From Bacteroidota bacterium (lineage in GTDB: Bacteria; Bacteroidota; Bacteroidia; Chitinophagales; LD1), in contig JAZKEP010000044.1 in the NCBI GenBank assembly GCA_040387015.1, positions 1 through 62,807 on the forward strand: a stretch of 62,807 nucleotides of DNA, read 5' to 3'. Below are positions 2,923-55,006 of this stretch, one piece after another; position 1 is the stretch's first letter, and the number at the start of each line of letters is the position of its first letter. Under the pieces are notes generated by a model that saw only the letters and a program-made list of their open reading frames with translations, was not told where the DNA came from and made no database searches. Position numbers and translations under genes: made by a program.

Positions 2923-4437
2923 TCAGAACGCGGCCCTTAAAATCTGTTTCGTTATTTCTTCGCTTCCCCCATCCACCAGCTTCTGCAATAAAAACGGAGC
3001 CACCCCAATCACCACAATTCCGGCAATCAGAATCACAGCCGCCAACTTTTCATTCCACTCCGCATCACCAAACGCAACGGCTGTTTCACCGTGAACCGTC
3101 AACTGTGAACCGTCAACCTGCAACTCCCCCCACATCACCTTCCCCAGCGCCCTCAAAATATAAACTGCCGTCACCACTATACTAGCGCAAGCAGCGATTG
3201 TTGCTAAGCGATACCACGTATCTGCATTCTGCCACGCGCCCATAAACACCGTCATCTCGGCAGCAAAACCGCTGAAACCCGGCAAGCCCAGCGAACACAA
3301 ACCCGCAATAAAAAACACCGTGCCTATAAACGGAGTAACCTTCAGCAGCCCGCCCATCTGGCTCACCATGCGCGTGTGCGTGCGCTCATACAACATGCCA
3401 ATGGCAGCAAAGAAAAGAGCCGTCATCAAACCGTGACTCACCATCTGCATCACCGCACCGGTAATGCTGGTTTTCGTCAGCATGCCAATACCCAGCAACA
3501 CAAAGCCGCAGTGGCTCACCGATGAATACGCATTGATGTATTTCAAATCCTTCTGCATCATGGTAGCAAACGCGCCATACAAAATGGCAATAGAAGCCAG
3601 CAGAATAATCAGCCACTGATACTCATGTGCCGCTTCGGGCATCAGGTAAGTGGCCACGCGCAGACAACCATAGCCGCCCAGCTTCATCGAAATACCCGCT
3701 AAGAACATCGAAGCCGCAGTAGGCGCGCTGCTGTGTCCGTCAGGCACCCAGGTATGAAACGGAAACAGCGCCCCGAAAATTCCGAAACCCGCAAACAACA
3801 GCGGAAAGAAAAACCGTTGCTGCTCCACCGGTATATGCATATGGCTCAGCGCCACCAAATCAAACGTTGGTGTGCCGTTGTAAAAATAAATTCCAAGCAG
3901 GCCCACAAACACCAGCGCACTGCCGCCCATCAGCATCAGCGCCAGTTTATTCGCGCTGTATTCCTTGCGGCCGCTGCCCCAAATAGCTATCAGCAAAAAC
4001 TTCGGTATAACGGCCAGCTCCAGAAAGAAAAACATCACAAACAAATCGAGCGACATAAAAAACCCGTAAGCCCCTGCCGAAAGAAACAGCAGCAGAAAGA
4101 AAAACTCCTTCGTCATCTTCTCCACCTTCCAGCTCACCAGCACACCCGCCACCACCACCAGTGCCGTCAGCCCCATCATCGCCACCGAAATACCATCCAC
4201 CCCCACGTAGTATTGAATATTAAAAGCCGAAAACCACACCGCGCGCTGCTCAAACAAAAACTGCGCGGCTGCTCCTGCGTTGCGCGCGTTCACATACGCC
4301 AGCGTCAGCCATCCTACCAGCGCCAACTGCAATACCGCGCCAATCAGCGACACCACCCGCACTTGCTTTGCATCGCGACACGTTAACACCACCAGCGAGG
4401 TAAGAACCGGTAAGAGGATTAAGAGAGATAAATTCAT
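2923..4437 (-). CDS. nuoM: NADH-quinone oxidoreductase subunit M
   Basis: 504-aa polytopic protein with FPFHTWVPDGHSSAPTAASMFLAG and SSVSHCGFVLLG, typical of NuoM/ND4. Confidence 0.9.
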   Translation of the reverse strand: MNLSLLILLPVLTSLVVLTCRDAKQVRVVSLIGAVLQLALVGWLTLAYVNARNAGAAAQFLFEQRAVWFSAFNIQYYVGVDGISVAMMGLTALVVVAGVLVSWKVEKMTKEFFFLLLFLSAGAYGFFMSLDLFVMFFFLELAVIPKFLLIAIWGSGRKEYSANKLALMLMGGSALVFVGLLGIYFYNGTPTFDLVALSHMHIPVEQQRFFFPLLFAGFGIFGALFPFHTWVPDGHSSAPTAASMFLAGISMKLGGYGCLRVATYLMPEAAHEYQWLIILLASIAILYGAFATMMQKDLKYINAYSSVSHCGFVLLGIGMLTKTSITGAVMQMVSHGLMTALFFAAIGMLYERTHTRMVSQMGGLLKVTPFIGTVFFIAGLCSLGLPGFSGFAAEMTVFMGAWQNADTWYRLATIAACASIVVTAVYILRALGKVMWGELQVDGSQLTVHGETAVAFGDAEWNEKLAAVILIAGIVVIGVAPFLLQKLVDGGSEEITKQILRAAF

Positions 4438-4589
4438 TTCAATTTATTTTTATGATGATGGGGGTTGCTGAAATTTTTTACTCCGTTTAATTTTTAATCG
4501 AAAAAAATTTCATCACCGCGTTTTCCGTTACAATCTTTTTTGTCCTCGCAAAAACATCCACGCACAAAAAAGGATTTACACTACAATCG

Positions 4590-5183
4590 CTACCCCGAAC
4601 AGCCGTCTTGCTTCGGCAAAAACTCCCTTATCTTTTCAACAAAAGGCAAATACAATTCTTCATGTTTAGATAGAAAATCCTTAATTAGATTTTTTAGTTT
4701 ATCTAGATCAACCGTATACTTCCCTTCCTCTTCCACTAAATAGGACTCAACATCGATTTTAAACAACTCATCAAACGCATTACTTGCCGTAAGAAGTGAA
4801 AAGTGATCTTTTACATGTTGGTATAGAGACTTTGAGTCTAGTGCTTTCATTCTTAATGTAGCCCAATTATCCAAATCTTTCCCGCCACCATTATTTGAAG
4901 AAAAACAGGTTTCAAAATCTTTTTTTAAAAAAATCGCTTCAACGAAACAGCCATAAGGTATTACAGCCAGTTTTTCTGCTATACTCACTACCGGCTTGTC
5001 GGGTTCTTCTCCCTCTGGTATTAAAGGAATAGTTGCTCCATCGTAATCTCTCCAAGGATGTTTGGATGGATAAATAACGATTTCCTTAGTTGCCCCCATG
5101 ACCCCAAAATTCTTAAGGTTTAGTTCACGAGCTATTAGGTGACCAAGTTCATGAAAGAAAACTGTTTTTACAGCAGGATGCAT
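4590..5183 (-). CDS. hypothetical protein with N-terminal HExxH (HELGH) zinc-peptidase-like motif
   Basis: 197-aa ORF. FFHELGHLIAREL lies at residues 9-21 and the remainder has no recognisable motif. AT-rich. Confidence 0.45.
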   Translation of the reverse strand: MHPAVKTVFFHELGHLIARELNLKNFGVMGATKEIVIYPSKHPWRDYDGATIPLIPEGEEPDKPVVSIAEKLAVIPYGCFVEAIFLKKDFETCFSSNNGGGKDLDNWATLRMKALDSKSLYQHVKDHFSLLTASNAFDELFKIDVESYLVEEEGKYTVDLDKLKNLIKDFLSKHEELYLPFVEKIREFLPKQDGCSG

Positions 5184-18365: not shown

Positions 18366-19436
18366 TTATTCCTTTAATCGAATCTTCATTTTCACCGGCT
18401 GGTGGTCGCTGAGATCAAAGCCCATATCCACTCCTTTTACTTCCACTACTTCAATATTCGGTGAGGTGAAGTAGTAATCAATAACGGTAGTAAAAGTTGT
18501 TTTAGGGTCGAAGACAAATTTGTTTTTGCGGTTGGTAGCAACGGTAGAGTCAAACACATAACTCCACCCGGGTACGTAGTTGGCATCGTTGTTTTTCAGA
18601 TAGAGCGCATCATCTTCCGGCTCTTTCTCCCAGGTGTGAACATTAAACGAAGGTGGTGCAATGTTCCAGTCGCCACCCATCACCACATAGTTTCCTTTGG
18701 CGTATTCTTCTTCCAGAATTTTTTTAGTCAAAGCCATCTGTTGCTTTTTCACACTGCCGTCATCATACGCTTCAAAGTGAGTATTAATAATAATTAAATC
18801 CTTTCCGTTGGCGAGATTATATCGCTGCATCAACAGGCAGCGTTCGAGATAAAATATTTTTCGGGGGAAATCTGAAATGCCCGGCAAGGCAATCCGCTTG
18901 CATTCTACCGGAATATATTTTGAAAGTGTTTGCAGCCCCCCGTAAACTTTTCCCATAGGGTCGGTAAATGGAAAGGGCAGATACTTTACATCGTAGTTGG
19001 CAGCAAAAGCATAATTGTGTTCGGGTAAAGCCTTTGCAAATTCTTCTGCTTGGTCAATCTTCCAGCTTCGTTTACTTTCCCTGTCCGACTCCTGTATCAT
19101 GATGAAATCGATATCGCGGTTCTGCCCGAAGAACTTAACCATACCCGCGTTATTCTTCAGCACATGTTCCTTAGGCGAGGTAACCATCTTGCCATCATCA
19201 TAAAAGAAATCAACTTCTTTACCTAAACCCCCATAGCCTACATTCCAAATAAGAAAAGAAAAAGTTGAATCGGTTAACGTTTTAGGACTTTCAATTGCTG
19301 ATTTCGGATTTACAACTGCCACCTCTTCCATGGGGGCTGGTTTAAACTTTGTCACCACTCCAAACAAAATCATTCCACCTACATATAGCATGGCACTCAT
19401 CAAAAGGATACCGACAAATAATAGCGCTTGTTTCAT
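18366..19436 (-). CDS. endonuclease/exonuclease/phosphatase (EEP) family protein, membrane anchored
   Basis: N-terminal TM and terminal LSDHQPV motif. WNVGYGG near the N-terminus. Confidence 0.65.
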   Translation of the reverse strand: MKQALLFVGILLMSAMLYVGGMILFGVVTKFKPAPMEEVAVVNPKSAIESPKTLTDSTFSFLIWNVGYGGLGKEVDFFYDDGKMVTSPKEHVLKNNAGMVKFFGQNRDIDFIMIQESDRESKRSWKIDQAEEFAKALPEHNYAFAANYDVKYLPFPFTDPMGKVYGGLQTLSKYIPVECKRIALPGISDFPRKIFYLERCLLMQRYNLANGKDLIIINTHFEAYDDGSVKKQQMALTKKILEEEYAKGNYVVMGGDWNIAPPSFNVHTWEKEPEDDALYLKNNDANYVPGWSYVFDSTVATNRKNKFVFDPKTTFTTVIDYYFTSPNIEVVEVKGVDMGFDLSDHQPVKMKIRLKE

Positions 19437-30400: not shown

Positions 30401-31726
30401 GTGAGCAATCTAATTCGCGGATTAAGTTTACGGCAGGCGGTGGCAATAAACACCATTGACATGGTGGGTATAGGCCCGTTCATTACTATCCCTTTTATAA
30501 TAGGAGCCATGAACGGACCGCAGTGTATTCTTGCCTGGGTGCTGGGCGCGGTTCTTTCTTTTGCGGATGGCTCGGTTTGGGCAGAGCTTGGAGCCAAGTG
30601 GCCCATGGCAGGAGGCAGTTACAACTTTCTTCAGAACCTTTATGGCAAAAAGAAATGGGGCCGGCTTCTTTCATTTCTATACATCTGGCAAACAATCATA
30701 CAGGCGCCTTTGGTGGTAGCATCGGGCGCTATCGGCTTTGCGCAGTACCTTACTTTTTTGGTTCCGCTGAGTGCTTTTGAGCAGAAAGCTGTTTCGGGTG
30801 GCCTGGTAATTCTTATTACTGTTTTACTTTATCGTAAAATAACCGAGATAGGAAAAATATCGGTGCTGATGGGAATGATAGTAGGCGGCACTATCCTTTG
30901 GCTGATTGTAAGCGCAGTGCCGCATTTTAAACCTGCACTCGCTTTTACCTACGCGCCCGGTGCTTTTGACCTTACACCTGTTTTCTTTTTCGGGCTAGGG
31001 CAGGCAAGCATCAAAACTGTTTACTCTTTTCTGGGTTATTACAATGTATGTCATTTGGGTGGCGAAATTAAAGACCCCGAGCGCAACATTCCGCGAAGCA
31101 TTTTTATTTCTATTGCCATTATTGCTGTGCTATATCTGCTGATGCAGGTTGCCATACTCGGTGTAATACCCTGGCAAGAGGCGAAAGATTCTCCCTTTAT
31201 TGTAAGCCTTTACTTTGAGCGCATCTACGGACATGCCACCGCACAGATAGCTACTGGATTGGTGCTGTTTATTGCTATCAGCTCTTTATTTGCGGTACTA
31301 CTCGGTTACTCGCGGGTGCCTTATGCTGCTGCCGCAGACGGCAATTTCTTTTCCGTATTCGCCAAACTACACCCCTCAAAACACTTTCCGCACGTAAGCC
31401 TGCTGGTGCTGGCAGGTATGGCTTTTGTTTTCAGCCTGCTGTTTAAAATGAAAGAGGTGATTACCGCCATCATTATCATGCGCATCATTGTTCAGTTCAT
31501 AGGGCAGGCCGTGGGTATTATTTTATACCATCAAAAAAAGAAACAGGAAAATTTTCCGTACCGCATGTGGCTGTATCCTTTACCCGCTGTGGCCGGAATT
31601 TTAGTGTGGGCATTCATCTTTTTTTCAGCCGAATGGATTTATATAGCTGGAGCGGTAGCTGTTATTGCGGTAGGATGGTTGGTGTATGTGTTAAAAGAGC
31701 TGATGCTTGGGCCGCGCTCGGCTTAA
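30401..31726 (+). CDS. APC family amino acid permease (GTG start)
   Basis: 441 aa, about 12 TM, N-terminal IGPFITIPFI...AELGAKWPMAGGSYNF. Confidence 0.75.
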   Translation: MSNLIRGLSLRQAVAINTIDMVGIGPFITIPFIIGAMNGPQCILAWVLGAVLSFADGSVWAELGAKWPMAGGSYNFLQNLYGKKKWGRLLSFLYIWQTIIQAPLVVASGAIGFAQYLTFLVPLSAFEQKAVSGGLVILITVLLYRKITEIGKISVLMGMIVGGTILWLIVSAVPHFKPALAFTYAPGAFDLTPVFFFGLGQASIKTVYSFLGYYNVCHLGGEIKDPERNIPRSIFISIAIIAVLYLLMQVAILGVIPWQEAKDSPFIVSLYFERIYGHATAQIATGLVLFIAISSLFAVLLGYSRVPYAAAADGNFFSVFAKLHPSKHFPHVSLLVLAGMAFVFSLLFKMKEVITAIIIMRIIVQFIGQAVGIILYHQKKKQENFPYRMWLYPLPAVAGILVWAFIFFSAEWIYIAGAVAVIAVGWLVYVLKELMLGPRSA

Positions 31727-31736
31727 ACGGAAATAA

Positions 31737-31922
31737 ATAAAAAACGGGGAGCGTTACCCACGCCCCCCGTCCATACTCACGGTTGATAAACCCATCACCA
31801 CAAAAGGCAACCGCTTTCTTTTTACTAACACACCTAAACCATGAAGTCAGAAATGGACTCTGACATCTTATAAACGTTACATACGAAGAAACCTTGCATC
31901 TGGATTTGTGAAGATTAGTTAA
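31737..31922 (-). ncRNA. candidate structured sRNA, tandem unit 1 (includes its upstream box)
   Basis: Box TTAACTAATCTTCACA (31922-31907). Hairpin 1 GTCAGA/TCTGAC (31864-31846). Hairpin 2 CGGTTG/CAACCG with loop CCTTTTGTGGTGATGGGT (31814-31779). GC-rich stem plus T-run terminator (31770-31737). Confidence 0.6.
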
Positions 31923-31931
31923 TGGCTGAAA

Positions 31932-32116
31932 GAATAAAAAAACGGGTGGTATTTGCATACCACCCGCCATACTCGCGGTTGATTACCCATCACCACAAAA
32001 GGCAACCGCTTTTTTATTAACACACCTAAAAAACCATGAGTCAGAAATGAATTCTGACAATTATATAACGCTATATCCGTGCCATTTGTTTTATGCCTGT
32101 TGTGAAGATTAGTTAA
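31932..32116 (-). ncRNA. candidate structured sRNA, tandem unit 2
   Basis: Identical 16-mer box (32116-32101). TGGCACGGATATAGC (32084-32070). Hairpin 1 at 32058-32040. Same invariant loop (32002-31986). Terminator CGGGTGGTAT-GCAA-ATACCACCCG plus T7. Confidence 0.65.
32070..32084 (-). promoter_or_regulatory. sigma-54-type -24/-12 element of unit 2 (TGGCACGGATATAGC)
   Basis: Matches TGGCAC-N5-TTGC at all but one position with correct GG/GC spacing. The -12 GC lies about 12 nt upstream of the first base of hairpin 1. Confidence 0.5.
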
Positions 32117-32121
32117 GCGGG

Positions 32122-32297
32122 GCAAAAATAAAACGGGCGGCATTTACATGCCACCCGCTTATCGCGGCTGTACCCATCACCACAAAAGGCAGCCGCATTT
32201 TACTAACACACTTAAACCCATGAAAATGCTTAAGCATCACAAACATAACATCAAACTTTCGAAATTGTTGCATTTAGTGTTGCAAACAAAAGTTAAT
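32122..32297 (-). ncRNA. candidate structured sRNA, tandem unit 3
   Basis: Only TTAACT of the box is kept. Hairpin 1 is replaced by ATGCTT/AAGCAT. Hairpin 2 stem is GCGGCTG/CAGCCGC (compensated) with the same invariant loop (32189-32173). Terminator CGGGTGGCAT-GTAA-ATGCCGCCCG plus T-run. Confidence 0.6.
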
Positions 32298-32319
32298 CCC
32301 CTCTGGTGCCGTGTTGACA

Positions 32320-32488
32320 TAAAAAAAACGGGCTAGCGTTTCCCACACCACCCGTTTAATACTCACCACTGTTATACAGCAGCTTTCTTTTTCACTATTG
32401 CAGAGCCAAATTCGCGCCTCTGACTCTGCTACATTAGTAACGCCACATACGTGCCAGACAGTATGTTTGCAATGTGAAGATTAGTTAA
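32320..32488 (-). ncRNA. candidate sRNA, tandem unit 4 (diverged copy)
   Basis: Identical 16-mer box (32488-32473). TGGCACGTATGTGGC (32456-32442). Hairpin GCAGAG/CTCTGC (32429-32400). Second hairpin has a different loop. Terminator stem plus T8 (32354-32320). Confidence 0.5.
32442..32456 (-). promoter_or_regulatory. sigma-54-type -24/-12 element of unit 4 (TGGCACGTATGTGGC)
   Basis: Same spacing and a one-mismatch match. Again about 12 nt upstream of hairpin 1. Confidence 0.5.
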
Positions 32489-32520
32489 GGTATAGATCAA
32501 GCGGAAGGGGAGAAATAAAG

Positions 32521-32700
32521 AAGGCAACCTCTTGCGAGATTGCCTCTTTTGTTATTCGATTTTACTCGTTTAACTGATTAGTATATTACAAGCACTATGC
32601 CACTGTGCCAAACCACGAAAAACTATGCTTTTAACAGCGATTCATGATTTTTCTATTGCTCTTTAAACACATCTTGGGGAATGGAATAAATTGCCACATA
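32521..32700 (-). other. terminator-bounded spacer unit without the conserved sRNA motifs
   Basis: Lies between the terminator of the 321-aa gene (32724-32699) and the hairpin GGCAATCT-CGCAAG-AGGTTGCC (32544-32523), which is flanked by T/A runs on both sides. No convincing ORF. Confidence 0.3.
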
Positions 32701-32724
32701 AAAAAACGGGGATGTGATATCCCC
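32699..32724 (-). terminator. intrinsic terminator after the 321-aa gene
   Basis: Minus strand reads GGGGAT-ATCAC-ATCCCC followed by T7, about 30 nt after the stop at 32754. Confidence 0.7.
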
Positions 32725-32753
32725 ATTCTTCCCTTAAAGATTTATTGCTGCTG

Positions 32754-33719
32754 TTAATTGTGCGCTGCTTTCCAGGGCATAGGAGTAGCATTCGGATTAT
32801 ACACATTCAACAGAGGCCGCGGAATATCGTAGCCTGCTGCCACTGCAATTACCTCCGCTGTGTCGCCTGGTGTTACACTTATTTGTATGGTGCTGGGGCC
32901 CGGGCTGCCGCCTTCGGTATCGCTGAAAAAGAAAATGATGGGACCTCCGCTGGGCGCCAGGTTGGTTAACAACAGATTGGTATCAGCCTGTATATCTTCT
33001 TCATCAAAAGGAATATTTACCCCCGTGCCCATGCCCACCGTTCCGGTAAGCACGTTGGTATCGGTTCCGCTTCCGCCCCCGCTGTTATCTATTGCCCGCG
33101 CCTGCAGATAAAGCAGGAACAACTCATTGTCCACCGCTTCAAAAGTAAGCATGTAAATATCCAGTTGATCGAGCAGCAAATCAGTTTGCTGAAACAGCTC
33201 ATCCACTTCCACACCCGACACCACTTTTTCGCCACGCTTTTCGGCAGGCAATTGTATCACATCAAAAAATGCGACCAGCGCATCGTTCAGTGCCGTTACA
33301 TCGGCAGGGCCACTGTTAAAACCGCTCAGGCTGGCCTGCACCACCAGCGCTTTCTTGTAAAGGTATTTTGCCTTTACATACAAATCGTTATCGCGCGAAC
33401 CTTCAAGATCGCTCTTAATATAGTCGGCCAGTTTTATGCTGCCCAAACTGCCAATGCTCAAAAAATAAGCGGCAGCAGCGCGGCTTACTTTCAGGGTTAT
33501 TACTTCTAAATCAACGCGCTCCTGCGCTTTTTCATCGGTGAAACCCGTGGTGTCGCTGGTGGCAACACCCGCTTCATCTACAATGGCCTCTATGTTATCG
33601 TCCAGCTCGGTTTTTATACCCGCAATTTGAGTTACCCCTGCCAGCTCGGTGGCTTTGGTATCCAGAAAAGAAGCGACCTTTTCAAACATGCCTAATTTAT
33701 CTTCCTGTTCATCTGTCAT
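32754..33719 (-). CDS. orphan hypothetical protein, helical N-terminal two thirds and Gly/Thr-rich beta-like C-terminal domain (start at MTDEQEDK preferred over the track start 33815)
   Basis: Long clean ORF with ordinary amino acid composition, no signal peptide and no recognised motif. Antisense ORFs in the track are shorter and low complexity. Confidence 0.6.
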   Translation of the reverse strand: MTDEQEDKLGMFEKVASFLDTKATELAGVTQIAGIKTELDDNIEAIVDEAGVATSDTTGFTDEKAQERVDLEVITLKVSRAAAAYFLSIGSLGSIKLADYIKSDLEGSRDNDLYVKAKYLYKKALVVQASLSGFNSGPADVTALNDALVAFFDVIQLPAEKRGEKVVSGVEVDELFQQTDLLLDQLDIYMLTFEAVDNELFLLYLQARAIDNSGGGSGTDTNVLTGTVGMGTGVNIPFDEEDIQADTNLLLTNLAPSGGPIIFFFSDTEGGSPGPSTIQISVTPGDTAEVIAVAAGYDIPRPLLNVYNPNATPMPWKAAHN

Positions 33720-33813
33720 GGTATGTGTGTTTTTAAATGATGAAATAATTTGATGACACAAATGAAAACACTTGCTGCCCTTCGCGCAATAGCAAAAGCC
33801 CCTTCCAAAGGGC

Positions 33814-34004
33814 ATATAGGCTGTTTCGTTACAGCTATAGGAAATTAAGTGAATGGTATAGGCTGTTTACCTACATGTTTCGGCCGTTCCATTAAACGTT
33901 CAGGCTGTTTCGTAGCCTATATAGGCAATTTAGTTACAGCCATCGGCTGTTTCGTAACGCTTATAGGAAATTTAATTACAACTATAGGTTGTTTCGAATA
34001 TGAA
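33814..34004. repeat. array C: 9 head-to-tail 20-22 bp units, two alternating subtypes (42-bp superperiod)
   Basis: ATAGGCTGTTTCGTTACAGCT-type units (33816, 33858, 33901, 33942, 33984) alternate with ATAGGAAATTTAATTACAACT-type units (33837, 33963; intermediate forms at 33879 and 33921). Located in the divergent intergenic region between 33719(-) and 34068(+). Confidence 0.85.
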
Positions 34005-34067
34005 AATATCGTCACGTCTTCCGCAATTCGCACTGCAATGAATTTTATAACCTAAAATCAAAACAGT

Positions 34068-34469
34068 ATGCTGGCATTCAACTTACGAAACGTTTTAAAG
34101 ATGAAAGGAATTGACGAACCTTATCCCTGGCTACGCAAGCGCGCTATCAGCGATGATATTATCAAGCGCTATTTAAGCGGCAAGGTGGTAAAGGTGGATA
34201 TGCGCCACCTCGAAATTTTTTGCTACGACCTTAATCTGCGGCCCAACGACTTTTTTATCTGGCAGCCTGACAGGCATACCCGCGATATTGAAAATCACGC
34301 GCTGCAGGAAATTCGCAGCGATCAGCCACTGCCCGATGTGGACAGCATTGCTAAAAAACTTTCAACCAAATCGCTGCGCAAGCTGGAAGAAGCCGCGCGC
34401 AAAATTGCCGAAGAGGAAATTGAAGAACGCAAAAAGAACATTGAGGCGAAGAAGAAAGGGAAGAAGTAG
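34068..34469 (+). CDS. XRE-like helix-turn-helix protein with charged C-terminal coiled coil
   Basis: LRNVLKMKGI...ISDDIIKRYLSG...LEIFCYDLNLRPNDFFIWQP, then KLEEAARKIAEEEIEERKKNIEAKKKGKK. Same architecture as 7309..7671. Confidence 0.55.
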   Translation: MLAFNLRNVLKMKGIDEPYPWLRKRAISDDIIKRYLSGKVVKVDMRHLEIFCYDLNLRPNDFFIWQPDRHTRDIENHALQEIRSDQPLPDVDSIAKKLSTKSLRKLEEAARKIAEEEIEERKKNIEAKKKGKK

Positions 34470-34496
34470 AGCGCTGCTTATAAGCACAAAAAATAA

Positions 34497-34518
34497 AGGC
34501 GGTTCTTGCGAACCGCCT
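34497..34518. terminator. hairpin AGGCGGTTC-TTGC-GAACCGCCT, probably bidirectional terminator
   Basis: 9-bp GC-rich stem. A-run upstream on the plus strand (T-run on minus) and a weak T-rich tail on plus. Lies between convergent genes 34068..34469(+) and 34683..35489(-). Confidence 0.5.
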
Positions 34519-34682
34519 CGTTACTATTTGATGTTACTCATTTAGTTGACTTGTAAATTGCAACAGCTGTGCCAAAGCAGTTAGCCGCAGAAACCCCGGT
34601 TTTTTGCCGCATTTAACAGCTATTGCTGGGGCGTTATAGAATATAGCTGGGGAAATTGAGAAGTATTTTCTCAGCGCGGGTA

Positions 34683-35489
34683 TTATTTCGTACCCGAAAC
34701 AATGAAGCAGGAATAGGAAGCAAAAAATTTGTCGTTTTTCAAATCCTGTTTCAGCACTTCCCACCAGGCAGCTATTTCGTTGGCAGTAAAAACGCCTTCG
34801 GAAACACCTGTTTGCAACACCCCCTCACAAATTTTTTTGGTTACATCCAGTTGGCGGTCGGTATAACTGAAGGGTTTCACTTTTACATCCTTAAAACCAT
34901 TGTCTTTTAAATAATGAAACAGCTCACCACCTACCCGCCCGCTGGGGAAACTGTCAGAAACATAGCGCACAATTTTTCGTGTCAGTGCTTTATCGGTATG
35001 GGCAATCATCATGGCATCCCAGTCGGTGTCGAACACCACCAGCCTGCCTCCCGGTTTCAGCAGTCGCTTAAATTCGGTAAACGCAGCAGCCGTATCTTTA
35101 ATATACATCAGCACCCTTTCGGTGCGCAGGCAATCGAAACTCTCACTTACAAAAGGCTGATGAACCGCATCGGCCACCATAAACTTTAGCGGCAGGCCCG
35201 AAGTTGCCGTGCTGTTTTGCGCAATATCAATCATGGCGGTGCTCAAATCGGTGCCGGTTACCATTCCTGTTTTACCCACCAGCGCGGCCATCTCTTTTGC
35301 CTGCACACCAATGCCGCAACCAATATCGAGCACCTGGTCGCCTTCGTGTATCTCGAGCAGGCCGAGTTGTATCTCAAAACTTTCGCGCACATGCTGCCGC
35401 TTGCTCACCTCCTCCAGAAAGTTTTTCAGAAACTCGGGTTGCGTATTGTCAACGTTTAAAAATCCGCTGATGATGTTTTGCTTTTCCAT
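34683..35489 (-). CDS. class I SAM-dependent methyltransferase
   Basis: Motif I VLDIGCGIGVQ. 268 aa. Confidence 0.75.
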   Translation of the reverse strand: MEKQNIISGFLNVDNTQPEFLKNFLEEVSKRQHVRESFEIQLGLLEIHEGDQVLDIGCGIGVQAKEMAALVGKTGMVTGTDLSTAMIDIAQNSTATSGLPLKFMVADAVHQPFVSESFDCLRTERVLMYIKDTAAAFTEFKRLLKPGGRLVVFDTDWDAMMIAHTDKALTRKIVRYVSDSFPSGRVGGELFHYLKDNGFKDVKVKPFSYTDRQLDVTKKICEGVLQTGVSEGVFTANEIAAWWEVLKQDLKNDKFFASYSCFIVSGTK

Positions 35490-35518
35490 TTTCAGTTTAC
35501 TATAGTAAAGATAGATTG

Positions 35519-36358
35519 CTAATTAAATAGATTGGTTTGACCTCCATCATCATTCAAATATTTAAACTGCTCAGGATCTCTTACATCTTGTATCCCTCCA
35601 TACTTATTAACGGTTTCTCTCACAATATTGATTGAGCCATTTAAATCTTCCTCAATATCCTTACTTGTAAAACGAAGCACTGACCAGCCCTGGCTTTCGA
35701 GAAGATTATTTCTCTGCTTATCATTTCTTACAGCAGTTGAATCCATATGGTAAAAGTCACCATCAGTTTCGATATTGATATTTTTATTCTTACAGAATAC
35801 AGCAAAGTCAAGAAAGAAATTTCTACTGCTAACCGAAATAAAATACTCGCGTTCAGCGTATATATTACGTTTCAGCATTTCATTCCAAAATCTATCACCT
35901 AATGAACTATTGTTGAAAAGGAAGTTTAGCTCTTTCGAGCCAAAAAATTTTTCTTCTGTGGTAGGAATAAATAAAACTCTTCTTGGTCTTAAACTGATAA
36001 TGGGAATTGGCAGTTGCATTAATGTTTTAAACTCGACTTTGAAATATTCGTTTTCTGTTTTCGCATTTCTAACTTCTTTTGGAAACAACTCACTCCTTTT
36101 AACAACAGATATTTTTCTTATCTCGCCAAACCACTGAATGGTAAATTTTTCCTTTTCAAACTCGCTTGTATGATAGAATGATATCAACTTAGCCTTTCCT
36201 TCTTTGATAATTGGAGGTGCGTTTTTTACAGGTATTCGGTACCATAACTTTTCTTGAGCAATCAGAAAATCTTTTTGATTGTTCATTAAGGCAACAAGAA
36301 CATTGTTTTGAGGCTTAGCCAAAACAGATAGATTTATAAACAAAAGTAAAAGAAGCAT
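35519..36358 (-). CDS. DUF559/Vsr-like (PD-(D/E)xK fold) endonuclease domain fused to an uncharacterised N-terminal domain
   Basis: C-terminus FFLDFAVFCKNKNINIETDGDFYH...RNDKQRNNLLESQGWSVLRF fits the DUF559 pattern. N-terminal 170 aa contains QEKLWYRIPVK. Alternative start at 36286. AT-rich. Confidence 0.6.
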   Translation of the reverse strand: MLLLLLFINLSVLAKPQNNVLVALMNNQKDFLIAQEKLWYRIPVKNAPPIIKEGKAKLISFYHTSEFEKEKFTIQWFGEIRKISVVKRSELFPKEVRNAKTENEYFKVEFKTLMQLPIPIISLRPRRVLFIPTTEEKFFGSKELNFLFNNSSLGDRFWNEMLKRNIYAEREYFISVSSRNFFLDFAVFCKNKNINIETDGDFYHMDSTAVRNDKQRNNLLESQGWSVLRFTSKDIEEDLNGSINIVRETVNKYGGIQDVRDPEQFKYLNDDGGQTNLFN

Positions 36359-46752: not shown

Positions 46753-47520
46753 ATGGATTTTGACTTCTCAGTTTTCAGCACACCGGATGCGTGGATCAGT
46801 TTACTAACTCTCACCTTCTTGGAAATTGTTCTTGGTGTAGATAACATCATCTTTATCTCTATTACAGCAGCAAAACTGCCAAAGGCTCAGCAAGCCCGCG
46901 CCCGCACTCTTGGATTGTTTATGGCGCTGATCATGCGCCTGATATTACTTACACTTATCGGGTTTGTAATAGGCCTCACAGAACCGCTGTTCACTTTGCC
47001 GCTTCAGTCAATTTTTGAATCCATCAAAATGGACCATGCTGCTGAAGCCGCAGCTATTTCAGGGCGTGATTTGATTTTAATACTGGGTGGGTTTTTCCTG
47101 CTTGCTAAATCAACTACTGAAATTCATGGTAAAGTTTCGGGTAAGCACGAGGCTACCAAAAGTATAGCGGCCACGGCATTTTGGTCTATCATACTTCAAA
47201 TAGTCTTTATTGATATTGTGTTTTCCTTCGATTCGATCCTTACAGCTGTAGGCCTTACCAAACATGTAATTGTAATGATGGCGGCTGTAATCATCTCCAT
47301 AATAGTGATGATGTTTTTTGCAGGGGCTATTTCCAATTTCATTAATAAATATCCAACGCTACAGATTCTTGCGCTTTCGTTTTTAATTATGATTGGCTTA
47401 ACACTAGTGCTGGAAGGATTTGAGGCTCATGTAAACAAAGCCTTCGTTTACATTTCTGTGTTGTTCTCGCTGTTTGTAGAGTTTCTGAATATACGTTTCA
47501 GAAAGCAGGAAGCTGATTAA
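46753..47520 (+). CDS. TerC family integral membrane protein (start at MDFDF preferred)
   Basis: LEIVLGVDNIIFIS and SFDSILTAVG motifs. Confidence 0.8.
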   Translation: MDFDFSVFSTPDAWISLLTLTFLEIVLGVDNIIFISITAAKLPKAQQARARTLGLFMALIMRLILLTLIGFVIGLTEPLFTLPLQSIFESIKMDHAAEAAAISGRDLILILGGFFLLAKSTTEIHGKVSGKHEATKSIAATAFWSIILQIVFIDIVFSFDSILTAVGLTKHVIVMMAAVIISIIVMMFFAGAISNFINKYPTLQILALSFLIMIGLTLVLEGFEAHVNKAFVYISVLFSLFVEFLNIRFRKQEAD

Positions 47521-48314
47521 ACATTTCCCAATACATACATCTTCTCCATTGTGGGAACTGATTTTCCTCCGAGTGGCTCAAGGGTAATAGCAAACGCTAC
47601 TGCATTCTTCACTTGTTTCATTTCTGCGAAGGATGTATCCTTATTTATTACTCCTAAATCCACCGGCTTTCCATCAACAATTGCCCAAAGCTGAAACTGT
47701 TCGTTAGCAGCTATTTGAGGAAGGGCCGAGGCATTGATAAAAGTGTTCCCTTCTTCTTTATTCCAAAACACTATAGCTTTTGATGTTGGTGAAATTGGAA
47801 GGCCATTAAGTAAGATATGCTGATGAGCAGGATTTGAAACAACCGCTATCTCATTCTTCAATTGTTCACTTTCACTAGTGATGTGTTTAACCTGGTTAGC
47901 CAGTACTGACTGCTCTGATTTAAGCGACAATAACTCGTTATTGGTGCTGTTGTAGCGGTTAACGAAATAAACAGTAGTTACAGATAAACCGAGTATCAAT
48001 ACAACTCCGGCAGCAGCAGCAAAGCGCATTACCGGACGCAAGTGAACAATAATGGTTTTAATATTGTCCATATCTAAATCCAATTCGACTCCAAAACCAA
48101 TTCGTGCTGCTATTTCATCTTTCAACTCTGCCTTAGGATGCAGCGATTGCGCAAAGGCAAACTCCTCCAAAGCGCTTTCTATACGATGAATTTCATCGTT
48201 CACTTCTTTGCTGGTTTTGCGCAACTCATCAATCTGCTTCATTTCTTCGGCAGGGAGTGAGCCCATCACATACAGTTCAAGCGAACCTGATTCTATAAGT
48301 TGTTTTGCTTCCAC
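47517..48314 (-). CDS. anti-sigma factor, RskA-like C-terminal domain
   Basis: Single TM (AAAGVVLILGLSV) and C-terminal FQLWAIVDGKPVDLGVI...AFAITLEPLGG. Directly downstream of an ECF sigma gene. Confidence 0.7.
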   Translation of the reverse strand: MEAKQLIESGSLELYVMGSLPAEEMKQIDELRKTSKEVNDEIHRIESALEEFAFAQSLHPKAELKDEIAARIGFGVELDLDMDNIKTIIVHLRPVMRFAAAAGVVLILGLSVTTVYFVNRYNSTNNELLSLKSEQSVLANQVKHITSESEQLKNEIAVVSNPAHQHILLNGLPISPTSKAIVFWNKEEGNTFINASALPQIAANEQFQLWAIVDGKPVDLGVINKDTSFAEMKQVKNAVAFAITLEPLGGKSVPTMEKMYVLGNV

Positions 48315-48315
48315 G

Positions 48316-48876
48316 TTATATAAAGTATTTTCTGAGTTTATTCATAGCTAATCGTACTCTGCTCTTTACCGTTCCTAATGGTATGCTTAGTTCTTCTGCC
48401 ACTTCACTTTGAGTAAATCCTCTGAAATACAACAGGTCAATAATATCCTTCTGCTCTTTCTCCAATTGGTCAACCATTTTTTTTAATCCAATACCATCTA
48501 CAAACTGCGATGTGGTAGCATGTATATTCCTTGCAAAATCTTTGTCTCTTTTTAGTTCATGCTCGCCTTTCATTGCTTTGGAGCGCAACTTATCAATGGC
48601 GTGGTTGCGGGCTATGTTCATCATCCAGGTATAAAGGCGTGAACGCTGTGGGTCGTAGGATTCGAAGTTGTTCCAAATTTTTACAAATACCTCCTGCAAT
48701 GCATCGTTGCTTGCTTCTTCGTGGTGAAGTATATTAAAAATAACTCCATATAATGCGGGACTATAGTTATCATACAGATATTCAAACGCAAGTTTGCTTT
48801 TGCTCTTTAGCTCAGAGCAAAGAAACTCTTCTGTATATTTTTTTGATTGGGCCAGGTATGCTGTTGTTGCTGTCAA
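48316..48876 (-). CDS. ECF-type RNA polymerase sigma-70 family factor (TTG start)
   Basis: Region 2 (ALQEVFVKIWNNFESYDP...LYTWMMNIARNHAID) and region 4 (FRGFTQSEVAEELSIPLGTVKSRVRLAMNKLR). Confidence 0.85.
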   Translation of the reverse strand: MTATTAYLAQSKKYTEEFLCSELKSKSKLAFEYLYDNYSPALYGVIFNILHHEEASNDALQEVFVKIWNNFESYDPQRSRLYTWMMNIARNHAIDKLRSKAMKGEHELKRDKDFARNIHATTSQFVDGIGLKKMVDQLEKEQKDIIDLLYFRGFTQSEVAEELSIPLGTVKSRVRLAMNKLRKYFI

Positions 48877-52888: not shown

Positions 52889-54447
52889 TTAGAACTGATA
52901 CCTGAATCCACCGCTTACTCCAACATTGTATTTACGCCTTTCCTGCCTGCCTATTTCGTTCAGGCTCATATAGAACATGGGCTCCGTAAAAAATATGTAT
53001 TTCTTTTTGTGGATATATTCCACTCCTGCCGAAGCATAGAAGGAAGCATAGTAACGCCTTAAGCCGCGCATACCGAAATACTCTGCCTGTTCCCCTTCGG
53101 TGTAAGAAGCATTTTCAACGATGCTTTTATTATTGCCCGCCATAAACGGATTGTCGTTACTGGAAACAAATACATTGTCAGCCCAAATGTTGTTAGGAAT
53201 AACACGCGGTCGTTTTTCGGTCACAAACTCTTCCGTAAACTTAATATGATTGATAAAGCTGGCTGCTACATAAAAACGGAAGCGCTCTTTTACAACGGGG
53301 TAAACCTTTATTCCTATTGGAATCTGTAACTCATGAATTTTCGAAATATAGCTTTTTGTAACCCCTTCTGTGTCGATCGGTGCCTTGGGTCTGCATATTT
53401 TGAAAGCCGTATGCGAATACAAAATTGAATTGGTAATGGCCACCCGTTTGCCGAACAGAAAATCGTGTGTAATACCTACTGCGTAAGAAGGTTTTTCGTA
53501 ACACGATTTGCATGCGTTTAAGCTATCGAGATACATACGCTTACCTCCTACTATGGTGGCCGAAATATTTGCAAGCACACCCAATGAATATTGAAACTTC
53601 TTCTTCTTTGCCTTAGCCAATGTTTCCTCGTTCGCCTTGTTGATAGAGGTTTCCTCCGAAGTAGTTTCCAGCAAGCCCGTCCTTCTATCCATTTCTATCC
53701 TTTGCTCTACTAAACTCTTTGATGAAACAACAGAAGCAACTGTTTCAGTTTCCTCACGTGGCACATTTTTCTCAAACTGCTGTATGGTAGTATTCGCACC
53801 ACCCTGTTTCGCTTTTTGCAGCAGGCTATTTTTTCTCCTTTGCTTTTGCGCATCTTTTGATGATAAAGCAAAAGATGTTTCATCTGAAAAAGAATCCTCC
53901 GTTTTGCTAGAAGAAGTTTGCTTTTCTGAATGATTACTCAGTAAAGAATTACCGGATGGTGATTGATTATAGTTTACAACAGCTCTTTTCTTCTTCCCTA
54001 TAGCCTTAGCCTCATTCCCTGCTATCTGATTTGCCTTTTGTGTTACTGCTGCTTCCGTGTTCTTGTTGTTTCTTGTTTGCTCTTTTGTACCTGCGTGTTT
54101 TGAAGTGGCTGTAGGCTGCTGTGCAACACTTTCATTTAATTGGTTGCTATTGCCTCCGTTGTTATTACCCTGTTCTGATACTTCATTTCCCCTTTCCGGT
54201 TTACTGTGTTCAGTTACCGGTACATCTTTGTGTTTCGCTTCAGTATGTTGTTTAATCCCAACTCATAGCCTATTACCCCAACCAACAAAAGCGATGCTGC
54301 AATACCCCCTGCCCACAACCAGAAAAAACCTCTGCGTTTTTTCTTTTTATCGAGCATGACTTCCATGTTCTCCCACGCCTTCGGGTCAAAAGGGGGTTCA
54401 ATACCCTTTAGTTTGTCGCGTAACTGTTTGTCTGAATTATTTTCCAT
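52889..54447 (-). pseudogene. anti-sigma-like TM protein with C-terminal outer-membrane beta-barrel-like domain, split by a frameshift
   Basis: ORF 54447-54214 (MENNSDKQLRDKLKG...TM...) and the frame open from 54262 to 52889 (ending GFRYQF) overlap by 49 nt in different frames. The total length of 1559 nt is not a multiple of 3. The start overlaps the upstream ECF sigma gene. Confidence 0.6.
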
Positions 54448-55006
54448 ACATATTTACATTAACCGTATTCATTTTAATTATTTTCTCCTGCAATTTTGCT
54501 CTTGCCTTTGCCAGGTTCGACTTTGAAGTTCCCTCGTTTATGCCGAGCAGCTCACCTATCTCGTTATGGTTGTATCCTTCCACTACATACAGGTTGAAAA
54601 CTGTTCTGTAAGCCGGTGAAAGCTGGTTGACCATTTCCAAAATCTGCGCTGCACTTAAGTCCGAAATCACATCTGCAGCATCTTCCACATAAACCGATTT
54701 CTCAATGTCACTGTGCTGATGTCGAATTTCTGCGCGCAGGTAATCAATAGCGGTGTTCACCATTATCCTGTAAATCCAGGATTCCAGATTTCCTCCCTTA
54801 TCAGCAAACTTCTTTATAGAGTCGAACACTTTAAAAAAACCCATGTTCAACATTTCTGTTGCCTGCTCACGGTGCGAAGCATAGCGCATGCACGTCCCCA
54901 TCATCTTGCCGAAATAGCGTTCATACAGGCGCTTTTGAGCAAGGCGTTCGTTTTTGATACAGCCTTTGATGAGTTCTTCTTCCGTCACATTGAATATAAT
55001 TCGCAT
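54437..55006 (-). CDS. ECF-type RNA polymerase sigma-70 family factor
   Basis: Region 2 (FFKVFDSIKKFADKGGNLESWIYRIMVNTAIDYLR) and region 4 (VEGYNHNEIGELLGINEGTSKSNLAKARAKLQ). Confidence 0.85.
   Translation of the reverse strand: MRIIFNVTEEELIKGCIKNERLAQKRLYERYFGKMMGTCMRYASHREQATEMLNMGFFKVFDSIKKFADKGGNLESWIYRIMVNTAIDYLRAEIRHQHSDIEKSVYVEDAADVISDLSAAQILEMVNQLSPAYRTVFNLYVVEGYNHNEIGELLGINEGTSKSNLAKARAKLQEKIIKMNTVNVNMYGK

Follow-up and report, generated by a model that had tools for sequence, protein, structure and literature searches.

The Qrr1-5 RNAs of Vibrio (RF00378), LhrC1-5 of Listeria (RF00616), and PrrF1/2 of Pseudomonas (RF00444) are regulatory small RNAs (sRNAs) encoded in several copies. 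The LhrC and PrrF genes are tandem duplicates that have separate promoters and terminators and carry their seeds in loops or linkers; the Qrr genes are dispersed, sigma-54 dependent, and Hfq-dependent, and are activated by LuxO at distal sites. To our knowledge, Bacteroidota generally lack Hfq, ProQ is lacking there as well, and post-transcriptional regulation is almost uncharted in this phylum beyond gut Bacteroides. Here, we analyzed a tandem array of four units at 31737-32488 on the minus strand of a 62.8-kb stretch of DNA (hereafter, the window) from an uncultured Bacteroidota genome. The closest described systems in the same phylum are FopS and GibS of Bacteroides, which are associated with RbpB; multicopy sRNAs are major RbpB ligands in Bacteroides, and the consensus structure of FopS has been deposited in Rfam according to its authors (PMC11697453).

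Like FopS and GibS, the array consists of multicopy paralogues with a single-stranded candidate seed and Rho-independent terminators, but it resembles them in neither sequence nor structure and has no match in Rfam 15. FopS consists only of a 5' single-stranded seed (R1) and a terminator, and its copies are dispersed and have canonical sigma-ABfr promoters, whereas the array has three hairpins, a strict tandem order, a dedicated 16-bp box, and heterogeneous core promoters. The multicopy organization, the similar length, the conserved seed, and a sigma-54-like box in units 2 and 4 are reminiscent of Qrr, yet RF00378 does not match and the sigma-54-like box is found in only two of the four copies. 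The tandem genes of LhrC and PrrF offer a parallel in layout, also without an Rfam match to the array. However, the loops of LhrC are CU-rich (UCCC) and directed against Shine-Dalgarno regions, whereas those of the array are G/U-rich, and PrrF is Fur-regulated, whereas there is no Fur-box-like palindrome at the array. The guide arrays of dCas12f-sigmaE systems and hth-associated non-coding RNAs share with the array Bacteroidetes hosts, tandem structured RNAs of about 100 nt, and the geometry of the box; in dCas12f systems, the guide RNAs are encoded right after dcas12f and have a variable 3' guide (PMC13472631). In contrast, each unit of the array ends in a GC-rich terminator with a T-tract, no dcas12f gene is present, and the variable part is the upstream DNA. 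A CRISPR array was also considered and rejected, as it needs identical repeats of about 24-48 bp with unique spacers, and here the units are long and divergent; Pfam scans of the window open reading frames (ORFs) revealed no cas genes.

The array is a structured, non-coding tandem gene family that is absent from Rfam and selectively maintained. When the 4227 covariance models of Rfam 15 were run over the whole window at the gathering threshold, no family matched the array, and a permissive scan of 31500-32800 returned only noise (E at least 0.18, and at least 0.46 for matches overlapping the units), so that the possibility of a known family, left open by an initial annotation made from the sequence alone, found no support. 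The sub-threshold candidates, all far below gathering, were rejected: L20_leader covered only a terminator, GcvB scored 15.5 bits where 42 are needed, and the E values of mir-4766 and mir-2208 were 1.1 and 7.7. We consider, with a probability of roughly 60%, that the four units are paralogous genes for a lineage-restricted, non-coding, trans-acting sRNA with a multicopy regulatory role.

Architecture and conservation of the array

The four units lie head to tail on the minus strand (31922-31737, 32116-31932, 32297-32122, and 32488-32320), where the initial annotation had placed them. Start-to-start distances are 192, 180, and 194 nt as read on the minus strand of 31400-32900. Tandem Repeats Finder (TRF) reported a period of 194 with 2.4 copies, 78% matches, and a score of 488. 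A hidden Markov model (HMM) built from the units and run with nhmmer found exactly four matches in the window, all on the minus strand (E 1.5e-52 to 8.7e-39). The conserved part amounts to about 140 nt of each 180-194-nt period and is itself divergent between units. The 3' end of the predicted unit 1 RNA is 13 nt from the stop codon of a convergent permease gene. The features are as follows, with scores of a covariance model (CM) in bits and folding z-scores (z) where available.

30401..31726, plus strand: amino-acid permease gene (APC family; Pfam AA_permease_2, E 3.4e-38), convergent to the array
31739..31864, minus strand: unit 1 predicted RNA (z -4.98; CM 140.1 bits; terminator scan), with hairpin 1 at 31846-31864, linker at 31815-31845, hairpin 2 and loop at 31779-31814, and terminator at 31739-31772
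31907..31922, minus strand: unit 1 16-bp box, exact match
31936..32058, minus strand: unit 2 predicted RNA (z -5.26; CM 132.9 bits; terminator scan), with hairpin 1 at 32040-32058, linker at 32010-32039, hairpin 2 and loop at 31975-32009, and terminator at 31936-31968
32070..32084, minus strand: unit 2 sigma-54-like box TGGCACGGATATAGC, 9/10 to consensus
32101..32116, minus strand: unit 2 16-bp box, exact match
32124..32237, minus strand: unit 3 predicted RNA (CM 94.8 bits)
32124-32159, minus strand: unit 3 terminator
32164-32196, minus strand: unit 3 hairpin 2, GCGGCUG/CAGCCGC, with the invariant loop
32197-32225, minus strand: unit 3 linker
32226-32237, minus strand: unit 3 palindromic 5' element
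32239-32246, minus strand: unit 3 box TATGTTTG (TAnnTTTG, 6/6), 1 nt upstream of the palindrome
32281..32296, minus strand: unit 3 variant of the 16-bp box, TTAACTTTTGTTTGCA (11/16)
32321..32429, minus strand: unit 4 predicted RNA body, diverged (z -4.76; CM 29.7 bits)
32321-32357, minus strand: unit 4 terminator
32365-32383, minus strand: unit 4 hairpin 2 stem with a 3-nt loop, the invariant loop being deleted
32400-32429, minus strand: unit 4 11-bp 5' hairpin
32442..32456, minus strand: unit 4 sigma-54-like box TGGCACGTATGTGGC (-24 GG / -12 GC), 9/10 to TGGCAC-N5-TTGC, at the same position as in unit 2
32473..32488, minus strand: unit 4 16-bp box TTAACTAATCTTCACA, exact match, 43 nt upstream of hairpin 1

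The 18-nt loop sequence CCTTTTGTGGTGATGGGT occurs exactly three times in the window, in units 1-3 only, as had been noticed; none of 100 shuffles reached three, and no other copy was found in the window even with up to three mismatches. The 16-mer TTAACTAATCTTCACA is identical in units 1, 2, and 4 as initially described, but unit 3, where only TTAACT was thought to survive, retains 11 of the 16 bases. The bipartite form of the box, TTAACNNNNSTTYRCA (TTAAC-N4-STTYRCA), matches each of the four units but no other site in the window, with 0.11 matches expected. Canonical terminators were called by the terminator scan for units 1-3, on the minus strand only; the claim of such a terminator at every unit needs qualification for unit 4, where a hairpin with one bulged base precedes T8, which was missed by the scan but is present in the sequence and in the RNA fold. 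Unit 4 is indeed a diverged copy without the conserved loop, although the loop was lost by deletion and the stem of hairpin 2 remains with compensated changes (GCUGCUG/CAGUGGU).

The predicted RNA measures about 110-140 nt, of which the part between the start of hairpin 1 and the T-tract accounts for 109-126 nt and a leader for 0-13 nt. Hairpin 1 has been exchanged wholesale in sequence in units 3 and 4, yet a hairpin remains; the earlier statement that it stays paired thus holds for the retention of a hairpin across units but not for the stem drawn in unit 3, where ATGCTT/AAGCAT is a contiguous palindrome that could form at most 4 bp with a tetraloop, and where the RNAfold structure instead has a 10-bp helix with the linker. 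The conserved linker is single-stranded and G/U-rich, reading UCAUGG(N)UUUAGGUGUGUUA before a stretch rich in A. Hairpin 2 has the stem GCGGYUG/CARCCGY and a loop of 15-22 nt, whose core UUGUGGUGAUGG is invariant in all five copies that keep the loop. The compensated T>C and A>G change proposed for this stem is real in the RNAalifold alignment, and the arms of the terminator also change in a compensated manner between copies. RNAalifold gave no support to a long-range helix of the 16-mer with the linker, which was rejected, and left the box unpaired altogether.

The notion of a structured RNA with covarying stems and a conserved loop, put forward in the initial annotation, is supported by folding energies, covariation, orthologues, and block-wise conservation. 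Against shuffles, the four units of the window fold with z-scores between -4.1 and -5.3, and a copy found in a relative (GCA_964631835.1, locus L016) with -3.1; hairpin 1, hairpin 2, and the terminator are all present in the RNAalifold result. In the CM alignment of six copies, the four units plus one each from L016 and a second relative (Logan ERR3200803, locus L117), pairing holds in 93.8% of the cells, and both sides have changed in 10 of 25 pairs, with covariation in all three helices; the alignment is model-fitted and its copies come from three closely related lineages, so these figures represent few independent events. None of 500 shuffles matched the observed value, and slid controls were 37-53% paired. 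G·U pairs occur in the terminators, in hairpin 1 of unit 1 and L117, and in hairpin 2 of unit 1, L117, and unit 4 (three pairs in the last). Because the plus strand would have C·A mismatches in their place, and as T-tracts follow the hairpins on the minus strand only, the functional strand is the minus strand.

To measure selection, the fourfold degenerate sites of the adjacent permease gene served as the neutral reference. Identities are listed by comparison.

Window against L016: fourfold sites 46%; spacer 33% (14/42); 16-bp box 82% (14/17); hairpin 1 81% (17/21); linker 84% (26/31); hairpin 2 and loop 81% (29/36); whole unit 67% (126/188)
Window against L117: fourfold sites 60%; spacer 83% (35/42); 16-bp box 100% (17/17); hairpin 1 86% (18/21); linker 91% (29/32); hairpin 2 and loop 92% (33/36); whole unit 90% (167/186)
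Unit 1 against unit 2: spacer 38% (16/42); 16-bp box 100% (17/17); hairpin 1 86% (18/21); linker 76% (26/34); hairpin 2 and loop 92% (33/36); terminator segment 50% (19/38); whole unit 69% (129/188)

The 16-mer, the hairpins, and the linker are conserved above the neutral level and are under purifying selection. Because the paralogues repeat the same block-wise pattern, the duplications must be old and the blocks maintained.

No reading frame is conserved, as originally stated, and the homologues revealed no conserved small ORF. The most conserved block has a 2-nt deletion in L016 (GCATTGTGGTGATGG against GCCTTTTGTGGTGATGG), and the linker carries indels of 1 and 3 nt. It is highly improbable that the units encode small peptides, for instance ones containing RLPFVVMG, or that the AUG within UCAUGG opens a micro-ORF. 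In units 1-3, one frame does read KRLPFVVMG, and the AUG is conserved in five copies and begins a frame of 14-15 codons in unit 3 and L117. However, the deletion in L016 turns the block into RLHCGDG followed by a stop, only 2-3 codons separate the AUG from a stop in unit 1, unit 2, and L016, and the longer frames diverge and read through the terminators, with unrelated C-termini and no common stop codon. Five ORF translations from both strands, searched as a concatenate, had no match among 5.8 billion proteins, and the covariation keeps pairing, not codons.

The upstream box and the promoter region

The consensus 16-bp box, TTAAC-N4-CTTCACA, is the sole strongly conserved element upstream of the RNA and occurs at RNA units only, in the window as well as in 120 loci. 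Its distance to hairpin 1 is constant at 42-43 nt in all six known copies. What had been described as a non-conserved spacer of 33-35 nt is thus longer and is better regarded as a promoter region of constant length; saturated as its sequence is between paralogues, it contains core elements that differ from copy to copy. In L016, the promoter TTTT-N16-TACATTTG, of the textbook Bacteroidetes sigma-A type, ends 13 nt before hairpin 1 and, by the published -33/-7 consensus, predicts a start about 5-9 nt before it. In unit 3, an element that is likewise of the Bacteroidetes sigma-A type (TAnnTTTG), TATGTTTG, ends 1 nt before the 5' element. Units 2 and 4 share TGGCACG-N4-T[AG]GC at an identical position (9/10 to the sigma-54 consensus), which would place the start at the first base of hairpin 1; judged by eye, the two units are identical at 14 of 18 positions inside this box compared with 3 of 16 in the preceding spacer. 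The sigma-54-like box is absent from units 1 and 3, L016, and L117. The spacer of unit 1 and its L117 orthologue is 83% conserved compared with 60% at neutral sites. Readings of a common core promoter of the ECF (extracytoplasmic function) type (AAC...CGT) or the sigma-70 type (-35/-10) yielded no element conserved across copies and were dismissed. Separately, a perfect sigma-54 consensus, TGGCACAGCTGTTGC (TGGCAC-N5-TTGC), with about 0.1 expected in the window, lies at 34560-34574 on the minus strand, antisense into the 3' end of a gene for an HTH_26 protein.

Since the core elements sit in the spacer, we infer that the spacer is promoter rather than transcript, and the starts that they predict would put the 16-bp box at about -35 to -59. 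Being the only strongly conserved upstream element, the box most probably serves as the binding site of a dedicated transcription regulator, either an activator or a repressor, which would co-regulate all copies. Each gene would have its own promoter region, with different sigma inputs possibly acting on different paralogues. The heterogeneity of the core promoters suggests dosage amplification combined with differential inputs.

The same geometry invites comparison with sequence-guided initiation, in which the box would be the address read by a dCas12f-sigmaE system or an analogue with a guide RNA encoded elsewhere. Such systems recognize targets of 14-16 bp, initiate 46 bp downstream of the target-adjacent motif without promoter motifs, and are found in Bacteroidetes hosts (PMC13472631). 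A 16-bp box followed by a rigid 42-43 bp would set the start about 12 nt before hairpin 1, the intervening DNA evolves in a neutral-like manner (33% against 46% at fourfold sites in L016), and the copies have no common core promoter. Nevertheless, we regard this explanation as very unlikely. Pfam searches of every window ORF of at least 350 aa and most smaller ones revealed no gene resembling Cas12f or TnpB, and no other match to the 16-mer, hence no visible guide, exists in the window. Recognizable core promoter motifs occur in the spacer of three of the six copies, and an ordinary DNA-binding activator would fit the same geometry. The converse idea that the 42-nt spacers themselves act as guides found no match of at least 12 nt elsewhere in the window. 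Two ECF sigma genes do lie 16-22 kb from the array on the minus strand, one in the region 47517-48876 and the other at 54437-55006. The former (48316-48876) is canonical, followed by a gene for its RskA-type anti-sigma partner, and no partner was identified for the latter. Both lack the C-terminal extension and Cas12f partner known from RNA-guided transcription systems. If guided initiation did apply, the array would be an sRNA battery switched on by a guide RNA from elsewhere in the genome.

Distribution and mode of action

The permease protein of the window is 100% identical to a protein from a metagenome-assembled genome at NCBI, and its nearest named relatives are Chitinophagales. Homologues of the RNA, reached by walking out from relatives of the permease, were found in two other assemblies, both adjoining the 3' end of the orthologous, convergent permease gene. 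In L016 (permease 85-86% identical), there is a single minus-strand unit, whose start is separated by 20 nt from a preceding SnoaL-like gene and whose end is separated by 6 nt from the stop codon of the permease. In L117 (permease 92-94% identical), where the cvpA-yqeY-permease synteny is as in the window, an orthologue of unit 1 (90% identical) belongs to a partial array reaching the contig end, at which a terminator is identical to that of unit 2 over 30 nt. Across the other permease-relative loci (L015, L017-L033, and L118-L120), the RNA is absent, and the covariance model found no further copy in about 267 kb of relatives' DNA. As far as these searches see, the family is real but narrow and patchy.

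The permease is the only neighbour common to all three RNA-carrying genomes, and the last unit ends 6-40 nt from its stop in each of them. The units might therefore act in cis or antisense on the permease as a roadblock, terminator, or insulator, or through convergent transcription modulating the 3' end of its mRNA, and the terminator scan showed no intrinsic terminator of the permease's own on the plus strand there. We find this role unlikely, because a roadblock or terminator would leave the invariant loop, the linker, the covarying 5' hairpin, and the upstream box unexplained. Furthermore, the terminators are unidirectional, with the T-tract on the minus strand only, and relatives retain the permease without the RNA in at least eight lineages.

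A selfish repeat, a miniature inverted-repeat transposable element (MITE), or a recombination cassette bounded by the 16-mer, without cellular function, might also generate tandem units with a repeated boundary motif in a variable region, next to an island at 32.7-36.4 kb that the relatives lack. We give this origin next to no credence. There are no terminal inverted repeats and no adjacent integrase or transposase gene, and selection acts on the internal blocks, in contrast to the saturated flanks. No dispersed copies exist in the window or in the relatives' DNA, and a blastn search with two units against PLSDB plasmids and INPHARED phages found no match, which also speaks against remnants of a dispersed MITE or repeated terminator, a possibility raised at the outset.

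How would a trans-acting sRNA of this kind work? The 5' stem-loop is probably protective, and the linker, the loop, or both are candidate seeds for base-pairing with C/A-rich mRNA stretches. A target search covering the 62.8-kb window (118 tests) gave two leading duplexes, one pairing the loop with the 5' region of the gene at 2923-4437 (-21.8 kcal/mol, z about -3) and the other pairing the linker with the 5' untranslated region (UTR) of the permease (-21.2 kcal/mol, z about -3). The latter was rejected as a conserved target, the site being degraded in L117 and absent in L016, and for this reason we propose no target. The longest exact complement of the invariant loop in the window, 13 nt (ACCCATCACCACA, 18675-18687, plus strand), is probably due to chance; it lies on the antisense strand of an Exo_endo_phos gene (18366-19436, minus strand) and would thus be missing from the mRNA of that gene.

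The main alternative to base-pairing is a sponge or decoy RNA. CsrB and RsmZ titrate CsrA in this way. Here, the G/U-rich linker and loop would bind an RNA-binding protein, such as one of the RNA recognition motif (RRM) type similar to RbpB, and the tandem dosage would titrate it. Each RNA has two similar G/U-rich single-stranded motifs (GGUGUGUUA and GUGGUGAUGG) and several gene copies, the window search gave no conserved mRNA target, and the multicopy sRNAs of Bacteroides set a precedent as RbpB ligands (PMC11697453). On the other hand, two motif instances per RNA are few, as classic sponges carry many, protein scans of the window linked no candidate binding protein to the locus, and the same features would suit seed regions equally. 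We therefore see a sponge as possible but distinctly less probable than a base-pairing sRNA.

Several observations weigh against the multicopy regulatory sRNA that we favor. The in-window prediction gave no convincing target, and the covariation comprises few independent events. At least eight permease lineages at 83-88% identity lack the RNA, with thrA or other genes following the permease. An exact search with a 19-mer of the loop in 185,579 species-representative genomes, among which the window's own species is evidently not included, found no true homologue; its 14 loci were dismissed as chance matches of 19-26 nt (at most 23 exact) in unrelated phyla. In JGI metagenomes, none of the 51 loci found with the 20-base gapped pattern GTGTGTTA-N10-30-TTGTGGTGATGG was confirmed by nhmmer. 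The same was true of 32 loci found in IMG/VR with GTGTGTTA-N10-30-GTGGTGATGG; diverged copies would escape such exact-pattern scans. Finally, unit 1 and its L117 orthologue have no recognizable core promoter, mixed promoters within one family are unusual, and the motif matches could be fortuitous.

Environmental lineages akin to Chitinophagales abound in soil and water. If the favored reading is correct, a four-gene sRNA battery with a control box would be a tractable way into a regulon of such a lineage, and sigma-54-like and sigma-A-like promoters on paralogues would be a natural case of signal integration via sRNA gene duplication. The immediate impact is modest, owing to the narrow distribution in three related assemblies.

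Neighbouring features

Downstream of the array, the small island at 32754-36358 contains lineage-specific genes for an orphan 353-aa protein, an HTH_26 protein, an S-adenosylmethionine (SAM) methyltransferase, and a DUF559/REase_MTES_1575-like protein, in a patch of 33.5% GC. The permease-downstream site is a variable hotspot, because the island is absent there in all fetched relatives. The 353-aa protein (32754-33815, minus strand) matched no Pfam, NCBIfam, or PHROG family, and because it is also not conserved beside the RNA in L016, we draw no functional link. Between its gene and the divergent gene for the Cro/C1-type HTH_26 protein (34068-34469, plus strand), iteron-like direct repeats ATAGGCTGTTTCGTWACAGC occupy 33816-33994 in a 21-nt phase, with about eight copies and a 42-nt super-period. 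These repeats may serve the HTH protein as an array of operators.

Between unit 4 and the terminator of the 353-aa gene (32700-32724) lies another terminator-bounded segment, here called unit 0 (32513-32610, minus strand). It carries a duplicated TGGCA[CT]AG box (TGGCACAGTGGCATAGTGCTTGT), then about 40 nt, and then the hairpin GAGGCAATCTCGCAAGAGGTTGCC with a T-rich tail. Neither the HMM nor the covariance model relates it to the array units, and a match to BTnc231 (E 0.59) was discarded as weak noise. From its sequence, unit 0 could be another small RNA.

The only gathering-level Rfam match in the window is a Flavo-1 RNA (RF01705; 52 bits against a threshold of 42) at 4510-4598 on the minus strand, flanked by a 197-aa orphan ORF on one side and a Proton_antipo_M (nuoN-like) gene on the other.

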